From positions 270,001 through 302,000 of the forward strand of contig MKSO01000001.1 of the NCBI GenBank assembly GCA_001897305.1: a stretch of 32,000 nucleotides of DNA, written 5' to 3'. A program made the translations under genes and the position numbers. The notes under the pieces were generated by a model, which made no database searches, was not told the origin of the DNA, and saw nothing but the letters and a program-made list of their open reading frames with translations. This stretch comes from Candidatus Saccharimonadota bacterium (GTDB taxonomy: Bacteria; Patescibacteriota; Saccharimonadia; Saccharimonadales; Saccharimonadaceae). Positions 4,681-32,000 of the stretch are shown here, piece by piece (the stretch's first letter is position 1; every line of letters starts with the position of its first letter).

Positions 4681-5749
4681 TGATTTTGTTGCTCTGGTCA
4701 ACCAAACGCTAGAGTACGCCTATCCCACGGTCACGGTTACGGGCGAGGTGGCCGAGTTTAGGGTCAGCCAGGGTAAGTGGGTCAGTTTTAAACTCAAGGA
4801 CGACGGTGCTTTAGTCGACTGTTTTATGCCGGCTTATTCGCTCCGTATTCCCATTGAAGATGGTATGAAGGTTGTGGTTGTGGCGGCTCCGCGGATTAGC
4901 CCTAAATGGGGTAAATTCAGCCTTAATATTCGTGCCGTCAAACCAGTCGGCGAAGGTTCGATTAAAAAAGGTTTCGAACTCCTGAAGGCTAAATTAGAGG
5001 CCGAAGGCTTATTTGCCCCCGAGCGCAAGCGTCCGTTGCCGCGCGTGCCATCTCGAGTGGCGGTTATTACAAGTACTGAATCGGCGGCCTATGCGGACTT
5101 TTGCAAAATTGTGAATGAGCGTTGGGGTGGCATGGATATTGAAGTAGCTCATACGCAAGTGCAAGGCGATCCAGCTGCAGATCAGATTATTCGGGCTATT
5201 AAATACTTCAATAACCTTGAACAACTCCCGGAAGTGTTGGTAATTGTTCGTGGCGGAGGAAGTGCCGAAGACCTTATGACGTTTAATGATGAATTGTTAG
5301 CCCGGGAAATTGCCGGTAGCCGTATTCCAACATTGGTCGGGGTAGGGCATGAGGTTGACCATACGTTAGCCGATATGGTGGCGGACCGACGGGCCGCTAC
5401 GCCAACAAATGCCGCCGAGATTCTTGTGCCAGACAGGCGGGAAATTATTCGAGGGGCTCATCAGCAGGCTACTTCATTGGGGCACCAGTTAGTTCAGGCG
5501 ATTGACCAATATTCGGTCCGCACTCGCGACCAGCTTGAGGCGGCGTATCGTCGCATTCGCGAGCGTTTGGATGATTCGTTCGAGCGCCTTGCGACACTAC
5601 GATTGGCGGTCGCCCAGCTTAACCCGGACACCGTATTACAGCGAGGCTACGCACTGCTACGCGGCGATGTAGCGGTGGGTAAGGCGATTGAGATTGAAAC
5701 ACACACTACAGTAATTACAGCGGAGGTACACGATGTCAGAAGCAAATAA
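4655..5749 (+). CDS. xseA: Exodeoxyribonuclease VII large subunit
   Basis: 364 aa with an N-terminal OB-fold (LTVSDFVALVNQTLE...VTGEV) and the catalytic core VIVRGGGSAEDL...GVGHEVDHTLADMVADRRAATPTNAAE. It overlaps the upstream gene by 26 nt. Confidence 0.9.
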   Translation: MENVQLTVSDFVALVNQTLEYAYPTVTVTGEVAEFRVSQGKWVSFKLKDDGALVDCFMPAYSLRIPIEDGMKVVVVAAPRISPKWGKFSLNIRAVKPVGEGSIKKGFELLKAKLEAEGLFAPERKRPLPRVPSRVAVITSTESAAYADFCKIVNERWGGMDIEVAHTQVQGDPAADQIIRAIKYFNNLEQLPEVLVIVRGGGSAEDLMTFNDELLAREIAGSRIPTLVGVGHEVDHTLADMVADRRAATPTNAAEILVPDRREIIRGAHQQATSLGHQLVQAIDQYSVRTRDQLEAAYRRIRERLDDSFERLATLRLAVAQLNPDTVLQRGYALLRGDVAVGKAIEIETHTTVITAEVHDVRSK

Positions 5750-11840: not shown

Positions 11841-12260
11841 ATGATTGTTTACTATACAGATGGCTCTGCGAGCCCCAACCCCGGCCCTGGTGGCTATGCG
11901 GTCATTAAAAACGGCGTACCACATATTCTTGGCAGCGAGGATGGCGAAACGACTAACATTCGCATGGAAGGTAAGGCTATTATTGCTGCTCTTAAGGATG
12001 CAGCTGGAGAGCATGCTGAAATCTTCACCGATAGTGAGTTTTGGATTAATGTCATTACCAAGTGGGCGCCAAGCTGGGAAGCGAAGGGCTGGAAGAAGAG
12101 CGGTGGCCCTATTAAAAACCTTGATATCGTTCAAGAAGTCTACCCACTGTACCAAAACTCGAACGCCACCCTTACTTGGGTGCGTGGGCACGAAGGTGAT
12201 GAAGGCAACGAACTCGCCGACCAATGGGCTAATAAGGCGCGCGAAGGCGTCCGGATCTAG
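11841..12260 (+). CDS. rnhA: Ribonuclease HI
   Basis: 139 aa with YTDGSASPNPGPGGYA, TNIRMEGKA, IFTDSEF and VRGHEGDEGNELADQWA (the DEDD catalytic set). Confidence 0.9.
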   Translation: MIVYYTDGSASPNPGPGGYAVIKNGVPHILGSEDGETTNIRMEGKAIIAALKDAAGEHAEIFTDSEFWINVITKWAPSWEAKGWKKSGGPIKNLDIVQEVYPLYQNSNATLTWVRGHEGDEGNELADQWANKAREGVRI

Positions 12261-12261
12261 T

Positions 12262-12882
12262 ATGAGTGAGGCTGTTTTTGGTGGCGAGGGGATCAAACCA
12301 AGAACAGAGTATGAAACACTGCGGGGCCTTGAGTTATATCAAGGGGCGTACGAAGCGACTTTGGCGCTCGATCAATTTATAGAGGCTAATAACAATGAAG
12401 CGGTGTTTGGTGAAAGTACCGCCTCTTCGAGTCCCGAAATGACCGAACGTAACCTCCATCTTTCGTATATGGTATTTGATAAGCCGGCTGACGACTTTTT
12501 TATATTTGATTCTGACAGTAAAGCAGTTCGGCTGGTTGAAGTAGCCGCTACAAGCTACGAAAAAAACATCACACTTCATTACACCCGATTTCATGCCGGG
12601 CCGGTGCTTGAAGAATATTATGTCTCATTCGAGCGGTATGTTCCGTATACGACTGTGCCCTTCGTCCACACCTATCTTTTCGAGTTTATTAAAGGCGGCT
12701 CTGCTCATGTAACAGTTCAGGGAAACAATATAGATATTGATGATGGTATAGAAGGGGTTATGTATGAACGCCAAGTAACTCCTTATGATTTAGCCGAGTT
12801 CTACAAAGAACTCGATGAAGTAAACGAACATATTAGGGCTGGTATGACGGAACACGAGGCGGTGCGACGGCTCGCGCAATAG
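12262..12882 (+). CDS. Hypothetical soluble protein (206 aa)
   Basis: ATG 12262 lies 1 nt after the rnhA stop. It is the C-terminal part of the 345-aa track ORF, whose upstream portion overlaps rnhA out of frame. No TM helix and no recognised motif. Confidence 0.55.
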   Translation: MSEAVFGGEGIKPRTEYETLRGLELYQGAYEATLALDQFIEANNNEAVFGESTASSSPEMTERNLHLSYMVFDKPADDFFIFDSDSKAVRLVEVAATSYEKNITLHYTRFHAGPVLEEYYVSFERYVPYTTVPFVHTYLFEFIKGGSAHVTVQGNNIDIDDGIEGVMYERQVTPYDLAEFYKELDEVNEHIRAGMTEHEAVRRLAQ

Positions 12883-12931: not shown

Positions 12932-14047
12932 ATGGATACTGACGAAACGCTTGAAATGACCGATATGTCTGATGTAATTGACGCCGATGCTGAAGTAGTT
13001 GTTGAGACAAAAAGTACTAACGCGCCAGTTGAAGCTGTTGAAAAAACAGATGACCTTAGTGCAGAGCTAAAAAATAAAGATGACACCAACGGGGTGGATA
13101 TTTTCCAATGGGCCAACCAAACGGATGCGGTTAAAAATGAACTTCGAGTAGAATTCTTTCTATTTAATAAAAATTACACACCTTACACTACAACTATTGC
13201 CGATGAACTTGACGCTCAAATTAAATCGCTTTTTTTGTACGACATCATTAACGACGTAAACCTCGGTGCGGGTACCGGCCTAAGTGTGCGTGATTACGAA
13301 CTTGTAGAGAAAGAAGATAACGTGCTACTGCGCACCGACCTCCCTAAAGTAGGGCGCGCCGAAACGCTTATCCATCTTATCGAACATGAGCGTAACGACA
13401 TTGTTGAATTTAGCGAGCAAGAGCACGAATTCAAACGCATTAAGGGAATTGTAGCGCGTTTTAGCCGTAAGGATGGTACAGGTGTCTTTTATGTTATCAA
13501 GCAGGTGAGTAGCGGTAATACACTGGCCGGGGCGACATCTTGGGAATTCAAAGAAGGTACCTTTAAGCCTTTTACGCCCGACTTTGGCTGGAAGGTTCCT
13601 TCTGACAACCAAGTGTTGATCGTTGATAAGGATATTTTCATCTTTAGCCAGTCAAAATTTGAGCGTTTATTTAACTACGAGTTTAAAAAGCAGCTCTTGG
13701 CTGACCAAAAAGTCACCGAGATTGAAAAGCAGTACAAACTGAGTTTCCCAGAAGGCCTCGATTTGCAGTCGCTAGTGATGGAAAAGAAAAAGATCGTCAA
13801 CAAGCTGCAGAAGCTTGAAGTAGGGGCGATTACCCAAGAACAAGCCATCGACTATGCGGACACTATGCAACTCGAACTTATGACTGATGATGAAGGCCGA
13901 ATTATTATTATGGATGGCAACGACCTTGATATGTTCGTGAACCTTATTAACGAAGATTATATTACCAGTGAACTAACGGGTAAGCGCTACGAAATTAAAA
14001 GTAAGAAACTACTGGGTGAACCTGAGGGCGAACCACCTCGCGGCTAG
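12932..14047 (+). CDS. Hypothetical protein, possibly DUF4868 (KwaB-like)
   Basis: 371 aa with an acidic N-terminal extension. The layout and the segment NQVLIVDKDIFIFSQSKFERLFNYEFKK recall DUF4868 members as I remember them. This was not verified by any search. Confidence 0.4.
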   Translation: MDTDETLEMTDMSDVIDADAEVVVETKSTNAPVEAVEKTDDLSAELKNKDDTNGVDIFQWANQTDAVKNELRVEFFLFNKNYTPYTTTIADELDAQIKSLFLYDIINDVNLGAGTGLSVRDYELVEKEDNVLLRTDLPKVGRAETLIHLIEHERNDIVEFSEQEHEFKRIKGIVARFSRKDGTGVFYVIKQVSSGNTLAGATSWEFKEGTFKPFTPDFGWKVPSDNQVLIVDKDIFIFSQSKFERLFNYEFKKQLLADQKVTEIEKQYKLSFPEGLDLQSLVMEKKKIVNKLQKLEVGAITQEQAIDYADTMQLELMTDDEGRIIIMDGNDLDMFVNLINEDYITSELTGKRYEIKSKKLLGEPEGEPPRG

Positions 14048-24273: not shown

Positions 24274-25548
24274 GTGGCAACTGGGTGGCGTGATCGGCGA
24301 TCTAGCACGCCCGAAGGGGTAGTGCGCAAGCACCATGGTGACCGCCTTATTGTGGTACTTACAGTCCTACTGATGTTTATTGGTCTTTTGATCATATACG
24401 CCATCGGGCCCCAACGCGCCAACCTCTTAAACTCGGTATATGGCTTTAGCTATTCCGACACATACTTCTTCTGGAAACAGCTCCTTAGTTTTGGGCTATC
24501 GCTTGGCGCTTTCTGGGTCTTGTCGGTAGTACCATACAATCTTGTGCTAAAACATGGCTCCAAAGTGTTATGGGTCGGGTTTATTGCCTGTGCCTTACTG
24601 GCAATAGGGGGCTGGACGCATATTATTGCGGGAACTAACGGGGCGGTGCGGTGGATTGACTTGGGGCCGCTGGGAAGTGTTCAACCGGCTGAAATTCTTA
24701 AGTTCGGGGTTTTGCTGTATTTAGCAGTATTTCTAGGCATACGGTCGCGAGAGGGGCGTGTAAATGACCTTAAGGCCACACTTCTTCCGGTTGGTATGCT
24801 GGCGGCCTTTGCGCTGTTGTTCGTGATTGTTATTCAAAAAGACCTCGGAACAGGTATCTCCTTGACGGCTATTGTGGCGACAATGCTGGTTGTGGCGGGG
24901 ATTAACCGTAAGATTATCTTTTCGCTTTTTGGCTTACTTTTGATAGCGGGTACTATCCTTATATTTACCTCACCTCACCGTATTGAGCGTGTCTTAACTT
25001 ATTTGGAAGGCGATAACACCTCAACATCAGATGCTGAATCGTACCACATTGAACACGCCAAAATTGCCATTGGCTCTGGCGGGTTGTTTGGGGTAGGGAT
25101 TGGCGATAGTGTCCAGGCTTCAGGATACTTACCGGAAGCAATCAACGACTCGATCTTTGCTATTATTGGTGAGACCTTTGGTTTTGTTGGTACCGTAGCG
25201 CTCATAGCTTTGTTTGTGGCGCTGCTTATGCGTTTACTTGGGGTGATGGACCACATGGTGGATGTACGACTAAAGTTATTAGCTGCTGGCGTGTTTGGTT
25301 GGCTAGGGGCGCATGTTATTCTTAATATAGCTGCTATGATTGGCATCTTCCCATTAACGGGTATTACCTTACCGCTTCTGAGTTATGGGGGAACGAGTAT
25401 GATATTCATGGCCGCAGCCCTTGGGCTTATATTTCAGTTATCAAAGTACACGGTGCATGCATCGCATATAAAGGAGGACATCAATGAGGATTCTCGCAGT
25501 CGGCGGGGGGTCGGGCGGACACGTTACGCCAGTCGTCGCGGTGCTTAA
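24274..25548 (+). CDS. ftsW: FtsW/RodA/SpoVE-family peptidoglycan polymerase
   Basis: Contains LPEAINDSIFAIIGETFGFVG and FPLTGITLPLLSYGGTSM. I chose GTG 24274, which lies 2 nt after the mraY stop, over the track TTG 24205, but the start is uncertain. Confidence 0.85.
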   Translation: MATGWRDRRSSTPEGVVRKHHGDRLIVVLTVLLMFIGLLIIYAIGPQRANLLNSVYGFSYSDTYFFWKQLLSFGLSLGAFWVLSVVPYNLVLKHGSKVLWVGFIACALLAIGGWTHIIAGTNGAVRWIDLGPLGSVQPAEILKFGVLLYLAVFLGIRSREGRVNDLKATLLPVGMLAAFALLFVIVIQKDLGTGISLTAIVATMLVVAGINRKIIFSLFGLLLIAGTILIFTSPHRIERVLTYLEGDNTSTSDAESYHIEHAKIAIGSGGLFGVGIGDSVQASGYLPEAINDSIFAIIGETFGFVGTVALIALFVALLMRLLGVMDHMVDVRLKLLAAGVFGWLGAHVILNIAAMIGIFPLTGITLPLLSYGGTSMIFMAAALGLIFQLSKYTVHASHIKEDINEDSRSRRGVGRTRYASRRGA

Positions 25549-26629
25549 AGAGCTTCGCAGCGAAGAACCTGATGTTGAACTACGCTTCTGGTGTGATACA
25601 GGGTTTGTACAACAAGCTTCAAAAATTGTCGGCGCCTTCGATGCTACTATTCCGGTTGAAACGATCATGTCGGGGCGTTTACGAAGGTATCATCACCTGA
25701 CATTTTGGCAGCACATTACATGGTTTTCACTTATGCGCCAAAACTTTGTCGATAGCTTTAAAGTTATCGGTGGTTTTTTTCAGAGTTTTTGGAAATTACT
25801 ATTGTGGCGCCCTGACGTTGTATTTACCAAGGGTGGATTTGTATGTTTACCGGTAGGCATGGCGGCGCATCTTTTGCGTATTCCTTTGGTTATACATGAC
25901 TCAGACGCGCACCCGGGCCTTACAAACCGCGTACTGTCGCGTTGGGCGACAAAAATTGCTACTGGTTCTCCGCTAGAGTACTACCCATATCCAAAAGACA
26001 GATCTTATTATGTCGGTATTCCTATTAGTGAAAAATTCGAACACTATAACTCGACGAAACAAGCAGCCGCCAAAAAACGCTGGAAGGTTGACGCCGATGC
26101 TCCGCTGATTGTTGTTACTGGTGGTGGCCTGGGGGCAAAACGCTTAAACGAAACCGTTATAGCCGCTTTGCCAGAACTCGAAAAGCTTGGCTCGGTGATT
26201 CTTGTAGCAGGTGCGGGTCATTACGAAACCCTCCGAAACTCAGTAAAAGATACAAGCAAGTTCCAGCTCCATGCTTTTATAGATACAATGCCCGATTTGC
26301 TAGCTGCTTCGGATATCGTTGTTGCGCGTGCCGGAGCGACCACTATTCAAGAGCTTGCCGCCTTAGAGAAGCCGACAATCTTGGTACCAAACGCCGCTCT
26401 AACAGGGGGGCATCAACTAAAAAATGCCGCCGTCTATGGTGATGCACAGGTTGCGCTGGTATTGGACGAAGACGCAATGGTCGAAAAGCCAAAGCTGCTG
26501 GTTGATGCAGTTCGTTTTTACTTGAAAGACCCCAAAACGACTCGTACGATGGCGCATCGCTTCGGCATTTATGCTAAACCAGATGCTGCAAAAGACGTAG
26601 CCCACCTTATCTTATCGGCTACTAAGTAA
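25484..26629 (+). CDS. murG: Undecaprenyl-PP-MurNAc-pentapeptide UDP-GlcNAc transferase
   Basis: 381 aa with MRILAVGGGSGGHVTP and ARAGATTIQELAAL. AAGGAGG (25471-25477) lies 6 nt upstream, inside the ftsW 3' end. Confidence 0.92.
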   Translation: MRILAVGGGSGGHVTPVVAVLKELRSEEPDVELRFWCDTGFVQQASKIVGAFDATIPVETIMSGRLRRYHHLTFWQHITWFSLMRQNFVDSFKVIGGFFQSFWKLLLWRPDVVFTKGGFVCLPVGMAAHLLRIPLVIHDSDAHPGLTNRVLSRWATKIATGSPLEYYPYPKDRSYYVGIPISEKFEHYNSTKQAAAKKRWKVDADAPLIVVTGGGLGAKRLNETVIAALPELEKLGSVILVAGAGHYETLRNSVKDTSKFQLHAFIDTMPDLLAASDIVVARAGATTIQELAALEKPTILVPNAALTGGHQLKNAAVYGDAQVALVLDEDAMVEKPKLLVDAVRFYLKDPKTTRTMAHRFGIYAKPDAAKDVAHLILSATK

Positions 26630-26647
26630 GGTATAATAAACATAACC

Positions 26648-27562
26648 ATGTTCAAGAAACCTTCTTCTCGTAGGCCTGTACCTCGTCGTCGGCAACCGAC
26701 GGAAAACGATACGCAAGTACCGGGTTCTTCGGGTGCTTCGCAGTACCGACGAAACCAAACCCTTAGCGGCTATCGTCGCGACGATCAGCAAGAGACATCC
26801 ACGCGGCAAAAGGCACATCATCTTGCATTGCAGCGTCGTCGCTTAGGGGGTATCTTTGTGTTGGTTATCGGTGCTGCCGTGTTACTTGGCTTACTATTAT
26901 GGCAACTGGTAGCCCAGGTACAAGTGACAACCTCATCGAAGCAACTGTCGACATCATTTGACACAAAGCCGTATAATGACGCCATTGAAAGCTATCTAGC
27001 GCTCAACCCGGCTCAACGGCTTCGTTTTACCTTAGATCAAACGGCTCTTAGCGCCTATGTGGCTGCTACATTACCAGAGGTGGAATCGGTAAAATTAGCC
27101 AGTACGCCGGGTATTGCACGGGCTGACTTTATGATTACTTTCCGTACGCCAATTGCAGGTTGGCAAATCAATAATCAACAGTACTATGTCGACGCTTCGG
27201 GGGCGGTTTTTAAGAAAAATTATTATCAATCACCATCTGTACAGATTGTTGACGAGAGCGGCGTTAAGCCAGAGCAGGGGAGTACAGTAGTGGGAACCCG
27301 TCTGCTTGGTTTTTTGGGGAAGGTAGTCTCGCAAGCGGGGGAGAGGGGATATACCGTCACGAAAGCTGTCCTGCCGCAAAATACTACACGCGAGCTTGAT
27401 GTAAATATTGAAGGTATTTCAACGCGCGTGAAGCTGGCTATCGACAGGGGAGCAGGGGAGCAGGTGGAGGATATGGCCCGGGCACTTAATTATTTGAAGT
27501 CACGTAATATGTCGCCGCAGTATGTTGATGTTCGTGTAAGCGGGCGTGCTGCGTATCGATAG
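26648..27562 (+). CDS. ftsQ: FtsQ/DivIB-like cell division protein
   Basis: 304 aa with a basic N-terminus, one TM helix (IFVLVIGAAVLLGLLLW), then POTRA-like and beta domains. Its position after murG fits FtsQ. Confidence 0.65.
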   Translation: MFKKPSSRRPVPRRRQPTENDTQVPGSSGASQYRRNQTLSGYRRDDQQETSTRQKAHHLALQRRRLGGIFVLVIGAAVLLGLLLWQLVAQVQVTTSSKQLSTSFDTKPYNDAIESYLALNPAQRLRFTLDQTALSAYVAATLPEVESVKLASTPGIARADFMITFRTPIAGWQINNQQYYVDASGAVFKKNYYQSPSVQIVDESGVKPEQGSTVVGTRLLGFLGKVVSQAGERGYTVTKAVLPQNTTRELDVNIEGISTRVKLAIDRGAGEQVEDMARALNYLKSRNMSPQYVDVRVSGRAAYR

Positions 27563-28112
27563 AACCGAACACGGCCAACAACAAGCTAGGCTTGGCAGCT
27601 AAGCATGGAGCGTGCTAAACCCAGTACGCTCTTCCCCCTTTTCTCTTTGTATTAATGTTCTATTTTTGTTCTATACATAACAAGTATGTTTAAAAAGTAT
27701 ATTAAAATATCGTAATACTAAAAAGTCAAAAAGGAGGGGAGCGGAGGAATGAGGGAGTAGTATAATCATTTTGAGAAAAAAGCAAATAACGGCTAGGTAT
27801 GTGGAAAACTTGCTCTGAGGTAAAAATATACAACACTACGACTAACCGTGGGTATGAATGCACAATAGCGTCATTAATAGTTAATTAAAACTTACATATA
27901 TAACTTACTAATAGGGATATGTGAGGTTCAAGGCACGTAGTACTCTCTTTTGCCTATAAACTAGATGTATTGGTACTCATCTTTATTTGTAATAATGTGC
28001 TTCGCAAAAGATATATTGTGCGACGTTAAGTCTATTGCTAGACTTTGGTTAGTTATATACATTTTTTCATTCCCCCGCTATGCTTCAAACATAAAAATTA
28101 ATTGGAGAAATT

Positions 28113-28346
28113 ATGGCAGACACCATTTCCCTACCAGACAACTTAAAATCACGAATTGCACGTGCATATATCGCCAATCGTTCGTTTACTGGCGATGACG
28201 GTAAATCCGTCGATTATAAGCGTTTTGTTCTTTCTGGCCTCATTAATGGCCAAGAAGTCGATATAGAGGTCAAAATTGATAAAAAAGACCTACTCCTCCT
28301 AAGTCTCTTTGAGGTCGTAGATCAACCTCAGTTAGGTCAGGAGTAG
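28113..28346 (+). CDS. Phage-region hypothetical protein (77 aa), in the position of a ssDNA-binding or regulatory protein
   Basis: GGAGA SD 5 nt upstream. It is soluble and beta-rich (KRFVLSGLINGQEVDIEVKIDKKD). The functional guess is by position only. Confidence 0.5.
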   Translation: MADTISLPDNLKSRIARAYIANRSFTGDDGKSVDYKRFVLSGLINGQEVDIEVKIDKKDLLLLSLFEVVDQPQLGQE

Positions 28347-28353
28347 AATCGAT

Positions 28354-28497
28354 ATGCAACCACAAATGACGTTTGCACAAGGAATTATTGAAGTGTTAAT
28401 CCAGTTGTCACCGTCATTTTTGGTTGTTTGTTTTGTTCTAATTGTGTTCTCATGGCTTCGATTATTGATTGATGTTATGAGTGGTAGGGGCTTCTAG
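28354..28497 (+). CDS. Small membrane protein (47 aa)
   Basis: MQPQMTFAQGIIEVLIQLSPSFLVVCFVLIVFSWLRLLIDVMSGRGF. AGGAG lies 10-11 nt upstream. It has one hydrophobic helix. This ORF is below the ORF-track cutoff and I translated it by hand. Confidence 0.45.
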   Translation: MQPQMTFAQGIIEVLIQLSPSFLVVCFVLIVFSWLRLLIDVMSGRGF

Positions 28498-28498
28498 T

Positions 28499-28681
28499 AT
28501 GTGGTACAACCCAGAGATTTATACTTCTGCTCAAGACCTTACAGACACACAAATTCTTTGGGCAATTTATCAGCATTTGGTTGCTACGACAACATTAGCT
28601 TTCGCTTTAGTTATTTTCTATTTTATTTTTAAATTAATTGTTTGGTTTGTACCAAAGTTTTGGCATAGGAGTAAAGAATAA
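28499..28681 (+). CDS. Small membrane protein (60 aa), coat-like charge pattern
   Basis: Acidic N-terminus, TM helix (TTLAFALVIFYFIFKLIVWFV) and basic C-terminus (KFWHRSKE). ATG 28499 lies 1 nt after the previous stop. Confidence 0.5.
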   Translation: MWYNPEIYTSAQDLTDTQILWAIYQHLVATTTLAFALVIFYFIFKLIVWFVPKFWHRSKE

Positions 28682-28773
28682 TGAAGAAAGATATTTTACT
28701 TGTTACAGGTTTATTTTCTGGCGTTTTAGGTTATGTATTATTTTTTCATGGTCTTAAGGAGGACAAAAAGTAA
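28681..28773 (+). CDS. Micro membrane protein (30 aa)
   Basis: MKKDILLVTGLFSGVLGYVLFFHGLKEDKK. It has a TAATG overlap with the upstream gene and an AGGAG 9 nt upstream. Its size is similar to pVII/pIX. Confidence 0.4.
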   Translation: MKKDILLVTGLFSGVLGYVLFFHGLKEDKK

Positions 28774-28910
28774 TGTGGTTTTTAACTTTTATTCTCGGTA
28801 TTCTTATAGGTCATTACGTTGTAGCTGACATAAAGGAATGGTTTATTTTTTACAAAACACGCCAAAGTCTTATTGATGACCCTAAAGCGCCTTGGAATAA
28901 GGGGGAGTGA
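28773..28910 (+). CDS. Micro membrane protein (45 aa)
   Basis: MWFLTFILGILIGHYVVADIKEWFIFYKTRQSLIDDPKAPWNKGE. It has a TAATG overlap with the upstream gene, and AAGGAGG lies upstream. Confidence 0.4.
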   Translation: MWFLTFILGILIGHYVVADIKEWFIFYKTRQSLIDDPKAPWNKGE

Positions 28911-28912
28911 TA

Positions 28913-29071
28913 ATGTCCCTTCCCTACTCTATGAACATTCGTGATATTTATGAAGAAATTGCTGAGATTTCTGATAAATTTTTCTGTATGCCTACTAATT
29001 CCGAGCGCGAGACTCTTATTAAGCGTCTTTTAGCACTTACTTATGAGCTTGACCGGAGATTTAATCAATGA
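28913..29071 (+). CDS. Small soluble helical protein (52 aa)
   Basis: MSLPYSMNIRDIYEEIAEISDKFF...LTYELDRRFNQ. GGGGAG lies 5 nt upstream. It has an ATGA overlap with the next gene. Confidence 0.4.
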   Translation: MSLPYSMNIRDIYEEIAEISDKFFCMPTNSERETLIKRLLALTYELDRRFNQ

Positions 29072-30576
29072 AACCGAAGTACGCTGTATTAGTAATCGGT
29101 TTCATTACCTCTGTCATAACAGGGGTACTGTTATCTCCCTCTTCTACACATGCAGCAAGTGCTTATGATAATGTGGTTCAAACTACAAATACACTTTCTG
29201 TTATATCCCCCGACGGTACGCAAAATGTTAGTTTAGCTGAAAATGGCGATCTACCCTGGTATCAACTTATAGAGAGTAAAAATCAAGCTTATGCCGATGC
29301 TCGTTGCGGTGATAGTTATATTTCTTCTTTAAATAATGCAAGATCATCTGGTTATGTTTCAGTAGTACAGGCTAAAGCGTCGGAACATTATCAGCGTGTT
29401 TACGTTATTTGGACTGACGATACTTACCCTTACGCTTGGCCTGTTTGGACTTTTCAAACAACCGAGTCAGGCACAAATTATGCCGAGCTTAAGTCTCCTA
29501 CTGGTGGCGATCTATCTATTGCACAAATAGAAATTGCTGACAATGGTGATTGGACCTGGCTTTGTTGGTCATCGGGTTCACCTAGTTTTGGTGTTGGTTC
29601 ACCAGATGGTTACATTTACCGTAATAACTATTCAGTTACTTATCCTGACGGTTATGATGGTGTATACTTTGCAAATTTAACACCTATTTCTACTCCTAAT
29701 GATTCTTCTTATAAACCGGATTTAAATGTTATATCCGTAGTGGGTTATCATGCCGTTATTCAAGATAGAAACTTTAATACCTTCGATCCAGTCCCCTTTA
29801 CGTGTAACGATACCCTCACACCAATAATGCATTATGAGCTATGGAAAGGCTCAGACCCCAATACGGATGTAAAATTAACCGACGGTGTCATGTCCCCTAC
29901 TGTTCCTTTCGAGTATGATGTGCCTTCAGGAAGTCAAGATACATACACTCTTGTAGCTTGGTATTCATGTGCCCCTGGAGATCTTACCTTCGATCAGTCT
30001 AGTTTCCTTTCCTTTCAGGTCAACGAATACGGTAGCCTTGTTCAGGAATGCGGTGATGATATACAGGGGTTCTTGTGTAAAGCTAGCCAGAATTTAAGTA
30101 TAGGTATATTCTCGACTACTTTTAACGGCCTCTTATCAATATTAAATAACATGAAAGCCATTAACCCGGTGTACTGTAGCACTGCATGGATAAGTCAAAA
30201 TCACTTCCAAAGCAACATACTACCCGTTCAAAACTTCCCTCCTAAAGTCTGTCAGTTTGCGCAAAATATGTACCTCTCGAATAACACACCATTTTATAGC
30301 ATCAATTTATGGCTCAATATCGTCTTAAAGGGCGCTGCAATCCTTCTCTTAGTCTTCGGTATTCTCTCAATTCTCGGGTTCAAGGTACGGCTACCATCTC
30401 CGATTGGTGAGGAGAATGGTACCGACATTCGTCCAGATATACCCACCTCCTCTTCTATTAGTAAGCATAGGGGTTCTTACTCTAGAACTCCGTCTGGCAC
30501 GCGTAGTACGGATGCAACTTTTACTCCTGGTAATTCTGGTAAATGGCATGATAGAAAACCTGAGAGGTGGCGTTAA
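29068..30576 (+). CDS. Secreted, C-terminally anchored large protein; pIII-like adsorption protein candidate
   Basis: 502 aa with a signal peptide (cleavage-like THA/AS), eight Cys in the exported part, a TM helix (GAAILLLVFGILSILGF) and a basic Ser/Thr-rich tail. GGAG lies 9 nt upstream. Confidence 0.55.
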   Translation: MKPKYAVLVIGFITSVITGVLLSPSSTHAASAYDNVVQTTNTLSVISPDGTQNVSLAENGDLPWYQLIESKNQAYADARCGDSYISSLNNARSSGYVSVVQAKASEHYQRVYVIWTDDTYPYAWPVWTFQTTESGTNYAELKSPTGGDLSIAQIEIADNGDWTWLCWSSGSPSFGVGSPDGYIYRNNYSVTYPDGYDGVYFANLTPISTPNDSSYKPDLNVISVVGYHAVIQDRNFNTFDPVPFTCNDTLTPIMHYELWKGSDPNTDVKLTDGVMSPTVPFEYDVPSGSQDTYTLVAWYSCAPGDLTFDQSSFLSFQVNEYGSLVQECGDDIQGFLCKASQNLSIGIFSTTFNGLLSILNNMKAINPVYCSTAWISQNHFQSNILPVQNFPPKVCQFAQNMYLSNNTPFYSINLWLNIVLKGAAILLLVFGILSILGFKVRLPSPIGEENGTDIRPDIPTSSSISKHRGSYSRTPSGTRSTDATFTPGNSGKWHDRKPERWR

Positions 30577-30893
30577 TGGATATTTTAAGTGCAATTGTTT
30601 CTTTCCTCTTTCAGCTCCTTGCAGCTGTTGTAACCGTTATCTTGACGCCAGTTGACGCATTAATTAACACTTTGGTTCCAGAGGCAACAACGGCTATTAG
30701 GTCTTTCTTTACATGGGTCAATTCCATGATTGCCCAATTTTTAGATTTTGTTAACTGGTTCTTTTATGTACTAGGCATTAAGCCAGACACATGGATGCTA
30801 ATCATGACTGTATGTAGCGCCCTACTTCTTATTTGGGTATTTCTTTTTCCTCTCAAACTGATACTTTCTGTCTTTAGAGGTATGAAAGATTAG
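30576..30893 (+). CDS. Polytopic small membrane protein; pVI-like candidate
   Basis: 105 aa from ATG 30576, which forms a TAATG overlap and follows GAGGTGG. It has three hydrophobic segments. Its size and position match pVI/Ace. Confidence 0.5.
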   Translation: MDILSAIVSFLFQLLAAVVTVILTPVDALINTLVPEATTAIRSFFTWVNSMIAQFLDFVNWFFYVLGIKPDTWMLIMTVCSALLLIWVFLFPLKLILSVFRGMKD

Positions 30894-30895
30894 CT

Positions 30896-31543
30896 ATGAA
30901 AATATTCTTTAAAACATTCACTAAAAAAGCTACAAAGTCGGGTAATACATTTCCCGTTGGCATGGTCCTATTTGTTGGTCACCAAGGTGCTGGTAAAACG
31001 ATTAGCGCCGTTCACTATGCTCAGTATTTAGAAAAAAAGTACCCTGATCTTAAAGTATTTAGTAACATTAAGCTCACGGGTTTTAAGGACTTTACTCAAC
31101 TATCTGCCGAGGAAATTGAACCAACCTTGCTTCAAGACTTTGGCCGTCGACCAGTCGCCTATTTGCTTGACGAAATTCAAACCCTCCTTCGCTCTAAAAA
31201 GAAAGTTTTGTCAGAAGATACCCTCATGTCTATTCAGCAGCAGAGAAAGGCCAACAAGACCATTTTAGGCACACTCCAGGAGTTCCTAGACCTCGATATC
31301 AGTTATCGACGCCAACTTCTTGCACAAGTCCAGTGTCGTCATGTAGGAAATGCCCAAGTAGAGTTTTGGCGCGACCCCACTACTCTTTCGTACAATGCCG
31401 ATAAAAACGATTACACGGGCCGTGTAATGGATATTTGGATTTGGAAACGACACGACGAAATATATAAGAAATATGACACCTATGAGATTGTTAGACAATC
31501 TATTAATACTACTCCACGCATCACCCCTGCTAATACTGGCTAG
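30896..31543 (+). CDS. P-loop NTPase; Zot/pI-like assembly ATPase candidate (short form, no TM)
   Basis: 215 aa with Walker A (GHQGAGKT) and Walker B (VAYLLDEIQ). It sits directly after the pVI-like gene, as in the ace-zot and gVI-gI arrangements. Confidence 0.6.
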   Translation: MKIFFKTFTKKATKSGNTFPVGMVLFVGHQGAGKTISAVHYAQYLEKKYPDLKVFSNIKLTGFKDFTQLSAEEIEPTLLQDFGRRPVAYLLDEIQTLLRSKKKVLSEDTLMSIQQQRKANKTILGTLQEFLDLDISYRRQLLAQVQCRHVGNAQVEFWRDPTTLSYNADKNDYTGRVMDIWIWKRHDEIYKKYDTYEIVRQSINTTPRITPANTG

Positions 31544-31563
31544 GGAGAAAGGAAAGACGAATC

Positions 31564-31737
31564 ATGGATGCAGCACAAGTAACAGCACTTACTGGCGCTT
31601 TTGATCCACAGGATTTGCTCGCTACGTTTATCCAATTCGCACCATACGTTATCGGTGTTATTGGCGTAATCGTTGGCGTTAGCCTTATCCGTTGGGGTTA
31701 TCACAAAGTACGTATACTTCTTTCACGAGGTGTTTAG
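31564..31737 (+). CDS. 57-aa major-coat-like membrane protein
   Basis: MDAAQVTALTGAFDPQDLLATFIQFAPYVIGVIGVIVGVSLIRWGYHKVRILLSRGV. It has an acidic N-terminus, a Gly/Val/Ile helix and a basic C-terminus, which is the pVIII/Pf3-coat charge pattern. I translated it by hand. Confidence 0.55.
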   Translation: MDAAQVTALTGAFDPQDLLATFIQFAPYVIGVIGVIVGVSLIRWGYHKVRILLSRGV

Positions 31738-31818
31738 TACTAGCCAGTATGCCATTTAGCTTATTAGTACCCAGGGTGGGCTATTAATAATCGGATTGGC
31801 TGAAAGTCCTTGTTTTTT

Positions 31819-31917
31819 CCACGGCCTTTAGGCTGTGGTAAAAGCTAGGACGTCCGGCCGGCGTGGCTACCACCACGCCGAACGCCGGGCCGGTTCAGAC
31901 CCGAGGCGCGAAGCGCC
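31819..31917. other. GC-rich hairpin cluster in an otherwise AT-rich element
   Basis: Hairpin 1 is 31819-31838 (ccacggcc/ggctgtgg). A nested hairpin pairs 31854-31859 with 31888-31893 and encloses 31860-31866 paired with 31873-31879. Hairpin 3 is 31905-31917 (ggcgc-gaa-gcgcc). Confidence 0.6.
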
Positions 31918-32000
31918 AAGGGGCTACTCGATACCAGAACATTTAATGTACTTTTTATAGAGGTGTAAGGTGATAGATATTAACGAATCGAGGGTATTCG

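Follow-up and report, generated by a model that had tools for sequence, protein, structure and literature searches.

A probable inovirus-like prophage inserted at a conserved palindrome downstream of ftsQ in a Saccharibacteria chromosome

We analysed a window of 32,000 nucleotides from the genome of a Candidatus Saccharimonadota bacterium (GenBank assembly GCA_001897305.1, contig MKSO01000001.1, positions 270,001 to 302,000 of the forward strand), the right-hand end of which carries a compact block of small genes that a preliminary description had taken for an integrated inovirus-like phage. Downstream of ftsQ (26648-27562), the table of open reading frames (ORFs) for positions 25000-32000 contains ten ORFs on the plus strand, from 28113 to 31737, separated by gaps of -4 to +20 nt and encoding, in this order, proteins of 77, 47, 60, 30, 45, 52, 502, 105, 215 and 57 amino acids (aa), hereafter named by their lengths except for the 215-aa protein, an ATPase. 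The same ten ORFs were recovered by independent gene calls on public contigs of identical sequence, and a hydropathy scan found one transmembrane (TM)-like segment each in p47, p60, p30 and p45 and none in p52; gene calls and hydropathy thus confirmed the sizes and the TM, signal and charge features first reported for the array. The GC content drops from approx. 0.48 to 0.35-0.41 past ftsQ; this turn to AT-rich DNA, also noted before, is real, but its first 447 bases are conserved host DNA and not phage. The FtsQ relatives retrieved from 58 species-level genomes all belong to Saccharibacteria, the closest being that of Ca. Microsaccharimonas (60-63% identity), so that the host, earlier guessed to be of the candidate phyla radiation (CPR)/Saccharibacteria type, is indeed a Saccharibacterium.

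The part of the element beyond the window was read on a 915-kb public contig (L001), one of many that carry the exact ATPase protein; L001 and the window share 11,105 bases without a single difference. The window coordinate equals the L001 coordinate plus 20895, and positions past 32000 are given as virtual ones. The element is bounded by a perfect 26-bp direct repeat, GATATATTGTGCGACGTTAAGTCTAT, with the left attachment copy (attL) at 28010..28035 (L001 7115-7140) and the right copy (attR) 4,951 bp downstream, at virtual 32961-32986 (L001 12066-12091), 26/26 identical to attL; no copy of this repeat was found in any shuffle of the window. From attL to attR the element measures 4,951 bp and, as had been suspected, it runs past the right edge of the window, continuing for 986 bp beyond base 32000. 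Its start, previously placed at 27640, is moved by attL and the empty site to 28010. The empty site that the preliminary description had proposed to look for in related genomes was found in a conspecific, on a 396-kb contig from the Joint Genome Institute (JGI), L072, with identical FtsQ, where the gene of a 423-aa protein directly follows ftsQ. After subtraction of one repeat copy and the 4,925 bp between the copies, the lysogen is colinear with L072: over 13,964 bp, the two differ by 36 mismatches and by no indel. L072 is, therefore, an isogenic empty site and, as it lies amid flanks of 99.7% identity, the gain or loss of the element must have been recent. The 447 bases of AT-rich, non-coding DNA at 27563..28009 are present unchanged in L072 and consequently belong to the host. 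Another candidate for att, a pair of 34-nt repeats on either side of the entire AT-rich island (L001 6752-6785 and 12284-12317), was rejected, since both copies are conserved host boxes kept in empty sites. The phage attachment site reconstructed from the two ends (attP) reads …CACAGAGGTCGAG-GATATATTGTGCGACGTTAAGTCTAT-TGCTAGACTT….

The same extension of the contig revealed, besides the att repeats, a rolling-circle replication gene (rep) on the plus strand, which begins with GTG at 31970 or with ATG at virtual 32024 and ends at virtual 32704 (L001 11075/11129-11809). Its product has 244 aa from the GTG or 226 aa from the ATG, the start used by gene callers, and only the 5' end of the longer frame (31970..32000) lies inside the window. 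Rep scores 56.5 bits with Pfam REP_ORF2-G2P (PF23343, cut-off 27.8), matches PHROG 3419 (rolling circle DNA replication initiation) with E 1.4e-18 and carries the HUH-type motifs FVTFTF, HFHALF and YVCKYITK; judged by these sequence features, it is an HUH rolling-circle initiator of the gpII/ORF2 type.

The second hallmark gene, at 30896..31543 (plus strand), encodes the 215-aa P-loop ATPase (Walker A GHQGAGKT, Walker B LLDE; no TM domain), for which a check against the morphogenesis proteins Zot/pI had been proposed. In a Foldseek search of BFVD with its AlphaFold model (pLDDT 69.6), a 'Zonular occludens toxin' of 206 aa from Inoviridae sp. came first (E 8.6e-14, TM-score 0.68/0.71) and further inovirus Zot proteins took ranks 3, 10 and 11; a protein of Acholeplasma phage L2 (rank 7) and A32-like packaging ATPases had lower scores. 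By tblastn, GenBank Inoviridae genes annotated as Zot are 27-35% identical to the ATPase (E 1e-13 to 1e-16); in addition, Pfam Zot is matched by 14 of 28 members of the ATPase family (best E 2e-5), and the protein itself matches PHROG 197 (Zot-like, E 3.8e-4). Its own Pfam Zot score (E 0.0019, 18.2 bits) lies just below the cut-off of 20.3, and a profile of the family searched against PDB sequences gave generic AAA matches only. Based on Foldseek, tblastn and the Pfam matches of the family, the ATPase is related to Zot/pI, with the lack of a TM segment as a caveat, as canonical pI has a membrane-spanning C-terminal part.

The remaining genes of the array, all on the plus strand, can be compared by position with those of the filamentous phage Ff. 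The first gene of the operon encodes p77 (28113..28346), a soluble protein in the slot of Ff gV, the single-stranded DNA (ssDNA)-binding protein; homologues occupy the same position in two other Saccharibacteria loci, L020 (52% identity) and L057 (29%). It had no match in Pfam or PHROGs and its AF2 model (pLDDT 69) had no significant neighbour in PDB, so that the gV-like role earlier ascribed to it is not backed by its fold. Of the single-TM mini-proteins, p47 (28354..28497; 52% identical in the L020 prophage) is a candidate minor virion or assembly protein, and p60 (28499..28681; 44% identical in L020; no Pfam match), in which the TM core is preceded by an acidic N-terminus and followed by a basic C-terminus, is coat-like and provides a second coat or minor coat candidate; p30 (28681..28773; gene call and hydropathy) and p45 (28773..28910; 64% identical in L020) follow, and then p52 (28913..29071), a small helical soluble protein with no family match in Pfam or PHROGs. 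The large protein, p502 (29068..30576), has TM-like segments at residues 5-23 (signal-like) and 418-436 (C-terminal anchor) and no match in Pfam or PHROGs. In relatives, its slot is taken by non-homologous proteins of the same architecture (462 aa in L020, 577 aa in L063 and 602 aa in L069), the pattern expected for a fast-evolving receptor-binding protein, and by position and architecture p502 is a candidate for a secreted, gIII-like adsorption protein. On the same grounds, p105 (30576..30893), a membrane protein with 2-3 TM segments in the gVI position, is a candidate gVI-like protein; proteins of 100-108 aa fill this slot in all relatives.

Past the ATPase gene lies that of p57 (31564..31737), a protein that has no signal peptide and in which a hydrophobic core of 19 aa separates an acidic N-terminal from a basic C-terminal part. 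It is 63% identical in L020 and duplicated in L069, and four of six p57 orthologues give sub-threshold matches to Pfam Inovirus_capsid (E 0.016-0.07; cut-off 27 bits), which makes it the best candidate for the major coat protein. The GC-rich hairpins reported after p57 occupy the intergenic region 31738..31969 (plus strand) and include GCGCGAAGCGC; folded as ssDNA, this region reaches a dG of -49.6 kcal/mol (z -5.5), and none of 200 shuffles was as stable. Relatives have other GC-rich hairpins at the same place. In a single-stranded genome, the region could serve as packaging signal, as complementary-strand origin or as both. A scan for consensus promoters and terminators found sites no commoner than in shuffled sequence.

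Closed at att, the map of the element runs from Rep, with an antisense ORF on the 3' end of its gene, through att, p77, the four single-TM mini-proteins, p52, p502, p105, the ATPase and p57 to the hairpin region, and is colinear with gII-gV-gVII/IX/VIII-gIII-gVI-gI-IG of Ff. The element is not a conserved part of the chromosome: besides the conspecific empty site, a related element was present at the site in only two of the 58 related Saccharibacteria loci fetched, L020 and L057. L020, from a distant Saccharibacterium (46% FtsQ identity), has a related prophage with the same gene order at the same site, with proteins 44-64% identical to p77, p47, p60, p45, the ATPase, p57 and Rep and a shared att core of 15 bp; L057 has the p77 homologue directly past the site. 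Furthermore, 43 homologues of the ATPase (41-93% identity) were found, mostly on contigs of 4-6 kb. The closest relative, L062 (4,862 nt, 93% ATPase identity), is circularly permuted with respect to the prophage, and its closed junction contains the sequences left of attR and right of attL around a single core, that is, attP. An ATPase with 75% identity, found in 15 samples, occurs on 15 contigs, all 4,949 nt long. Six of them were read; their ends overlap by 30 nt, and each is an exact rotation of a single 4,919-nt circle. It should be noted that in this circular relative (L063-L068) the Rep is only 29% identical to that of the window and the att 15-mer is missing; modules appear, from these sequence comparisons, to have been exchanged between this circle and the L001 phage.

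Scanning IMG/VR for the 15-mer GATATATTGTGCGAC gave 84 stretches, many of them probably matched by chance, and 80 loci were screened. ATPase and/or Rep homologues were present at 26 of these, with ftsQ or murG upstream in 14 of the 26. In hosts whose flanks are 93% identical, the phages found at the site are clearly distinct. Tandem phage arrays were considered and dismissed, as the DNA past the second att copy is host flank. On one IMG/VR contig, L086 (reverse complement), two att 15-mers at 5450 and 6454 are 1,004 bp apart, right after a complete phage; the interval could be occupied by a small satellite or a remnant that inserted at this site as well. No GenBank phage matched the element at the nucleotide level; at the protein level, homologues of both the ATPase (27-35%) and Rep (33-42%) occur in circular GenBank Inoviridae genomes of 4.2-8.8 kb, annotated there as 'Zonula occludens toxin' and 'replication initiator protein'.

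An insertion with exact ends, an isogenic empty site, a Rep of the REP_ORF2-G2P family, a Zot-like ATPase and free circular relatives have thus all been observed. We regard the DNA from window position 28010 to virtual 32986 as very probably one prophage of an inovirus-like (Tubulavirales-type) filamentous phage, residing in a Saccharibacteria chromosome approx. 450 bp past ftsQ. The preliminary description had favoured the same reading, and each of the tests run on it came out on the side of a prophage. In such a phage, Rep would nick the double-stranded replicative form and give rise to single strands, coat proteins would wait in the membrane, and the ATPase together with p105 and the mini-proteins would drive extrusion through a single membrane and the wall without a secretin. 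No secretin gene is present in the element, and a monoderm, wall-bearing host would not need one. Several observations count against a filamentous prophage: the ATPase falls under the Pfam Zot cut-off, with generic AAA models scoring similarly, and has no membrane-spanning C-terminal part; the assignment of the coat protein is based on sub-threshold matches; no gV-like fold was seen in p77; the attP junction, sought in JGI metagenome contigs, gave no match for this exact phage, and no virion, ssDNA or excision product of it was seen.

Another possible explanation is that the prophage is the same but now inactive, a cryptic or domesticated remnant persisting in most of the population. The prophage is indeed present in 22 of the 23 longest contigs carrying this exact FtsQ, and the failure to find an excised form of the exact phage among the JGI metagenome contigs would also fit. 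Nevertheless, we consider a remnant unlikely, as its twelve ORFs are all intact and tightly packed, the two 26-bp repeats have not diverged, a closed attP is seen in the closest relative, L062, and the empty site lies in a strain with 99.7%-identical flanks. Far less probable is a non-viral origin, as an integrative rolling-circle plasmid or a small adhesion or secretion island resembling a phage: the complete inovirus module order is kept in every relative, the best structural neighbours of the ATPase are inovirus Zot proteins, both hallmark genes occur together in 4-6-kb circular GenBank Inoviridae genomes, and no mobilisation, relaxase or resistance genes are found in the element, even though Reps of this type are used by plasmids too, the ATPase is weakly Zot-like by sequence and most of the small proteins are without an assigned family. 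Some other membrane-associated virus, e.g. a plasmavirus-like enveloped one, is hinted at by the many small membrane proteins and by the Foldseek list (Acholeplasma phage L2 protein at rank 7, followed by A32-like packaging ATPases) and is equally improbable in view of a Rep of the Tubulavirales ORF2/G2P family above the curated cut-off, a genome of less than 5 kb, top structural and sequence matches to Inoviridae Zot, the repeated though weak Inovirus_capsid matches of the p57 family and an ssDNA-type hairpin region.

The filamentous-type prophage has entered a well-conserved part of the host chromosome. The order murG-ftsQ-gap-897-aa protein-sigma-70 factor is kept in most of the 58 loci, and the cell-wall genes for PBP, MraY, FtsW and MurG adjoin. 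The gap, a non-coding region of approx. 570 nt between ftsQ and the convergent genes, is conserved across Saccharibacteria; in the lysogen it extends over 27563-28009 and resumes at L001 12092-12333, and its empty-site form is L072 9916-10630. The part at 27563-28009 aligns with the same region of approx. 30 Saccharibacteria without the element, and a core, TTGTGCGACGTTAAGTC (with no more than 3 mismatches), occurs as a single copy approx. 420-450 nt past ftsQ in approx. 45 relatives. Larger gaps downstream of ftsQ in other species were considered as further elements and turned out to hold ordinary minus-strand host genes and no second copy of the core. The region is bounded by two boxes of the form GTTCTA-N4-TGTTC, the left one at 27657-27671, and contains a DnaA-box-like sequence, TGTGGAAAAC, at 27800-27809, the conserved form of which across Saccharibacteria is TGTGGATAA. 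The boxes are direct repeats spaced by 11 bp, of the kind bound by response regulators; a third box of this host type (GTTCTAATTGTGTTC) is located within the phage gene p47, at 28435-28449, maybe by chance (at least 2 matches in 10 of 100 shuffles). Searches for tRNA, tmRNA and Rfam families gave no match to the non-coding region, and a host attachment site (attB) within an RNA gene was discarded, since ARAGORN and Rfam were blank in the window and in the empty-site loci even at E up to 1.

The target itself is a 28-bp imperfect palindrome of 11-6-11 architecture at 27999..28026, GCTTCGCAAAA-GATATA-TTGTGCGACGT, which has the attB architecture and is intact at attL. Its host form, ATGTCGTAAAA-GATATA-TTGTGCGACGT (consensus ATGTCGTAAAAGATATATTGTGCGACGT), with 7-9 of 11 arm positions complementary, is nearly invariant in more than 30 species, and the FtsQ proteins of the species sharing this 28-mer are only 32-63% identical to that of the window. 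A location of attB at the replication terminus or origin was rejected, as the sign of the GC skew is unchanged across the site in 30 of the 37 loci scored (in the other seven, it is only weakly negative to the right of the site).

No integrase, resolvase or transposase domain was detected in the 12 phage ORFs (Pfam, PHROGs), and no recombinase gene was seen in approx. 42 kb of host sequence. The core shared by phage and host consists of the 6-bp centre of the palindrome and its right arm, present in the phage as a copy of 15-26 bp, and att identity begins at the G of GATATA in every lysogen inspected (approx. 20). An identity border at the edge of the palindrome centre is the geometry of a tyrosine-recombinase (Xer/dif-type) site, and the 11-6-11 layout of the target and its very strong conservation would also suit a dif site. 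From this we infer that a host Xer-type tyrosine recombinase may exchange strands at the GATATA centre, as in CTXphi, VGJphi and TLCphi, phages counted among the integrative mobile elements exploiting Xer (IMEX); we put this mechanism forward tentatively, as one that falls just short of an even chance. Three findings speak against it: the absence of a GC-skew sign change in 30 of 37 loci, which means that the site is not a classical terminus dif; the single recognisable arm of attP; and the lack of significant likeness to model dif sites, as the 18/28 identity to B. subtilis and E. coli dif was equalled by chance in the same loci.

Alternatively, the phage's own HUH Rep could nick and join at an origin-like sequence shared by the host site, with no host recombinase involved. 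No recombinase is encoded, the host site behaves unlike a terminus dif, and attP in this lineage has another, iteron-like copy (ATTTTGCGACGTT) at a distance of 32 nt from the core, all of which would suit such a mechanism. We nonetheless think it rather unlikely, as the target is an 11-6-11 palindrome with the identity border exactly at the edge of its centre and, moreover, the identical 15-mer is shared by phages whose Reps are only 35-55% identical to that of the window, while in the 4,919-nt circle Rep is homologous (29% identity) and the 15-mer is missing; the site, therefore, tracks the host and not Rep. Integration by something other than an Xer-type recombinase or Rep takes up the rest of the probability. 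More broadly, it is possible, although we would not call it probable, that an integrase-less phage lineage exploits an unrecognised host recombination site, the 28-bp palindrome conserved in the class Saccharibacteria near the cell-division cluster. Two readings of this site are possible: a saccharibacterial dif located away from the GC-skew terminus, or the site of another host recombinase or regulator that is mimicked by phages. If such exploitation were true, Saccharibacteria would become a candidate host group for the orphan 'Inovirus sp.' and 'bajarodino' genomes of 4-6 kb found in animal guts.

Among the features around the right end, the ORF antisense to the 3' end of rep (minus strand; L001 11703-12149, virtual 32598-33044) has one TM segment and encodes 94 aa from an ATG, or 148 aa from a TTG situated in host DNA past attR. 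It is present in L062 (113 aa) and absent from L020, L063 and L069, and may be a lineage-specific accessory or exclusion gene. Past the element follow minus-strand host genes for the 423-aa protein, the conserved 897-aa TrwB/DUF8128-type ATPase, the sigma-70 factor and topoisomerase I. Adjoining the 897-aa ATPase, approx. 5.5 kb from the integration site, a 257-aa protein (L001 17659-18432, minus strand) starts with MTHRWAPAFTIVEIIVVV…, by its look a type IV pilin-like N-terminus, and may bear on the idea of a pilus as receptor. Elsewhere in the window, a 371-aa protein (12932-14047, plus strand) gives matches to KwaB, a component of the Kiwa system for defence against phages (Pfam PF16162, E 1.5e-10; PADLOC KwaB, E 6.3e-14), and the 345-aa ORF directly upstream (11845-12882, plus strand), which had no match, could be a divergent KwaA.

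The preliminary description had implied more novelty than the record allows, as relatives are already present in IMG/VR and in the literature. Roux et al. listed nine detections of inoviruses in CPR bacteria, e.g. in a Magasanikbacteria genome. Shaiber et al. 2020 (PMC7739484) ran an inovirus detector on oral TM7 genomes, and their supplementary gene table lists, for one oral TM7 contig, a Pfam-Zot protein that lies approx. 3.2 kb past ftsQ. A 2026 paper (PMC13578794) describes CPR-phage interactions as largely speculative so far, with tractable systems lacking. Nothing is thus overturned here, CPR inoviruses having been reported at catalogue level; we found no publication that describes att, the empty site or the mechanism, and the integration target may be the part that is new. 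For Saccharibacteria, as for other CPR bacteria, phage biology is still largely uncharted, and the present locus is experimentally addressable, with a complete 4.95-kb prophage, base-exact ends, a natural empty-site strain, free circular relatives and a class-wide 28-bp target. It allows excision assays by polymerase chain reaction or read mapping and provides a testable host-recombinase hypothesis, a possible small vector or integration site for the genetics of hard-to-manipulate Saccharibacteria and a clue to which hosts the small orphan inoviruses of gut viromes infect.

Among catalogued sequences, IMG/VR contigs such as UViG_3300015189_000013, UViG_3300008679_000076 and UViG_3300025913_000237 have an ATPase of the same family, with 79% identity in UViG_3300015189_000013 and 26-37% in the contigs bearing the 15-mer, many of which also have a Rep homologue. 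These relatives share the att 15-mer and the position past ftsQ/murG in other Saccharibacteria; they differ in the adsorption proteins and in parts of the replication modules, and their ends, att and empty sites are undescribed there. The GenBank 'Inovirus sp.' genomes from pigs (MT135285-MT135314, approx. 4.2-8 kb) and the 'bajarodino virus' genomes from rodent faeces (PQ0061xx, 4.7-8.8 kb) are likewise circular, of similar size, and carry the homologous Zot-like ATPase (27-35%) and initiator (33-42%). They have no nucleotide similarity to the element and no known bacterial host or prophage state, and the two that were fetched, PQ006144.1 and MT135286.1, are without the att 15-mer, whereas the element described here is anchored to a host within Saccharibacteria. 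The Plectroviridae of wall-less Mollicutes (SpV1, MV-L51) also combine very small genomes with hosts that have no outer membrane, and Pfam REP_ORF2-G2P is named after the Reps of SpV1 (ORF2) and of inoviruses (gpII); no other gene similarity to them was detected, and the host here is walled. With Ff (M13/fd/f1), the element shares the colinear circular order and structural genes that are all on one strand. Unlike Ff, it has no secretin gene (gIV), its candidate coat gene comes after the ATPase and not before gIII, its ATPase is short and without TM segment, it integrates, which Ff does not, and it measures 4.95 kb as against 6.4 kb. The IMEX filamentous phages of Vibrio and Xanthomonas (CTXphi, VGJphi, TLCphi, Cf1c) are integrase-less, depend on XerCD and carry a partial copy of a short host palindrome. 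Unlike theirs, the site described here is not at a GC-skew switch and not significantly dif-like, and attP has one arm; in common with them, the element has no integrase, targets a host palindrome, carries a partial copy of it and has its identity border at the central region.

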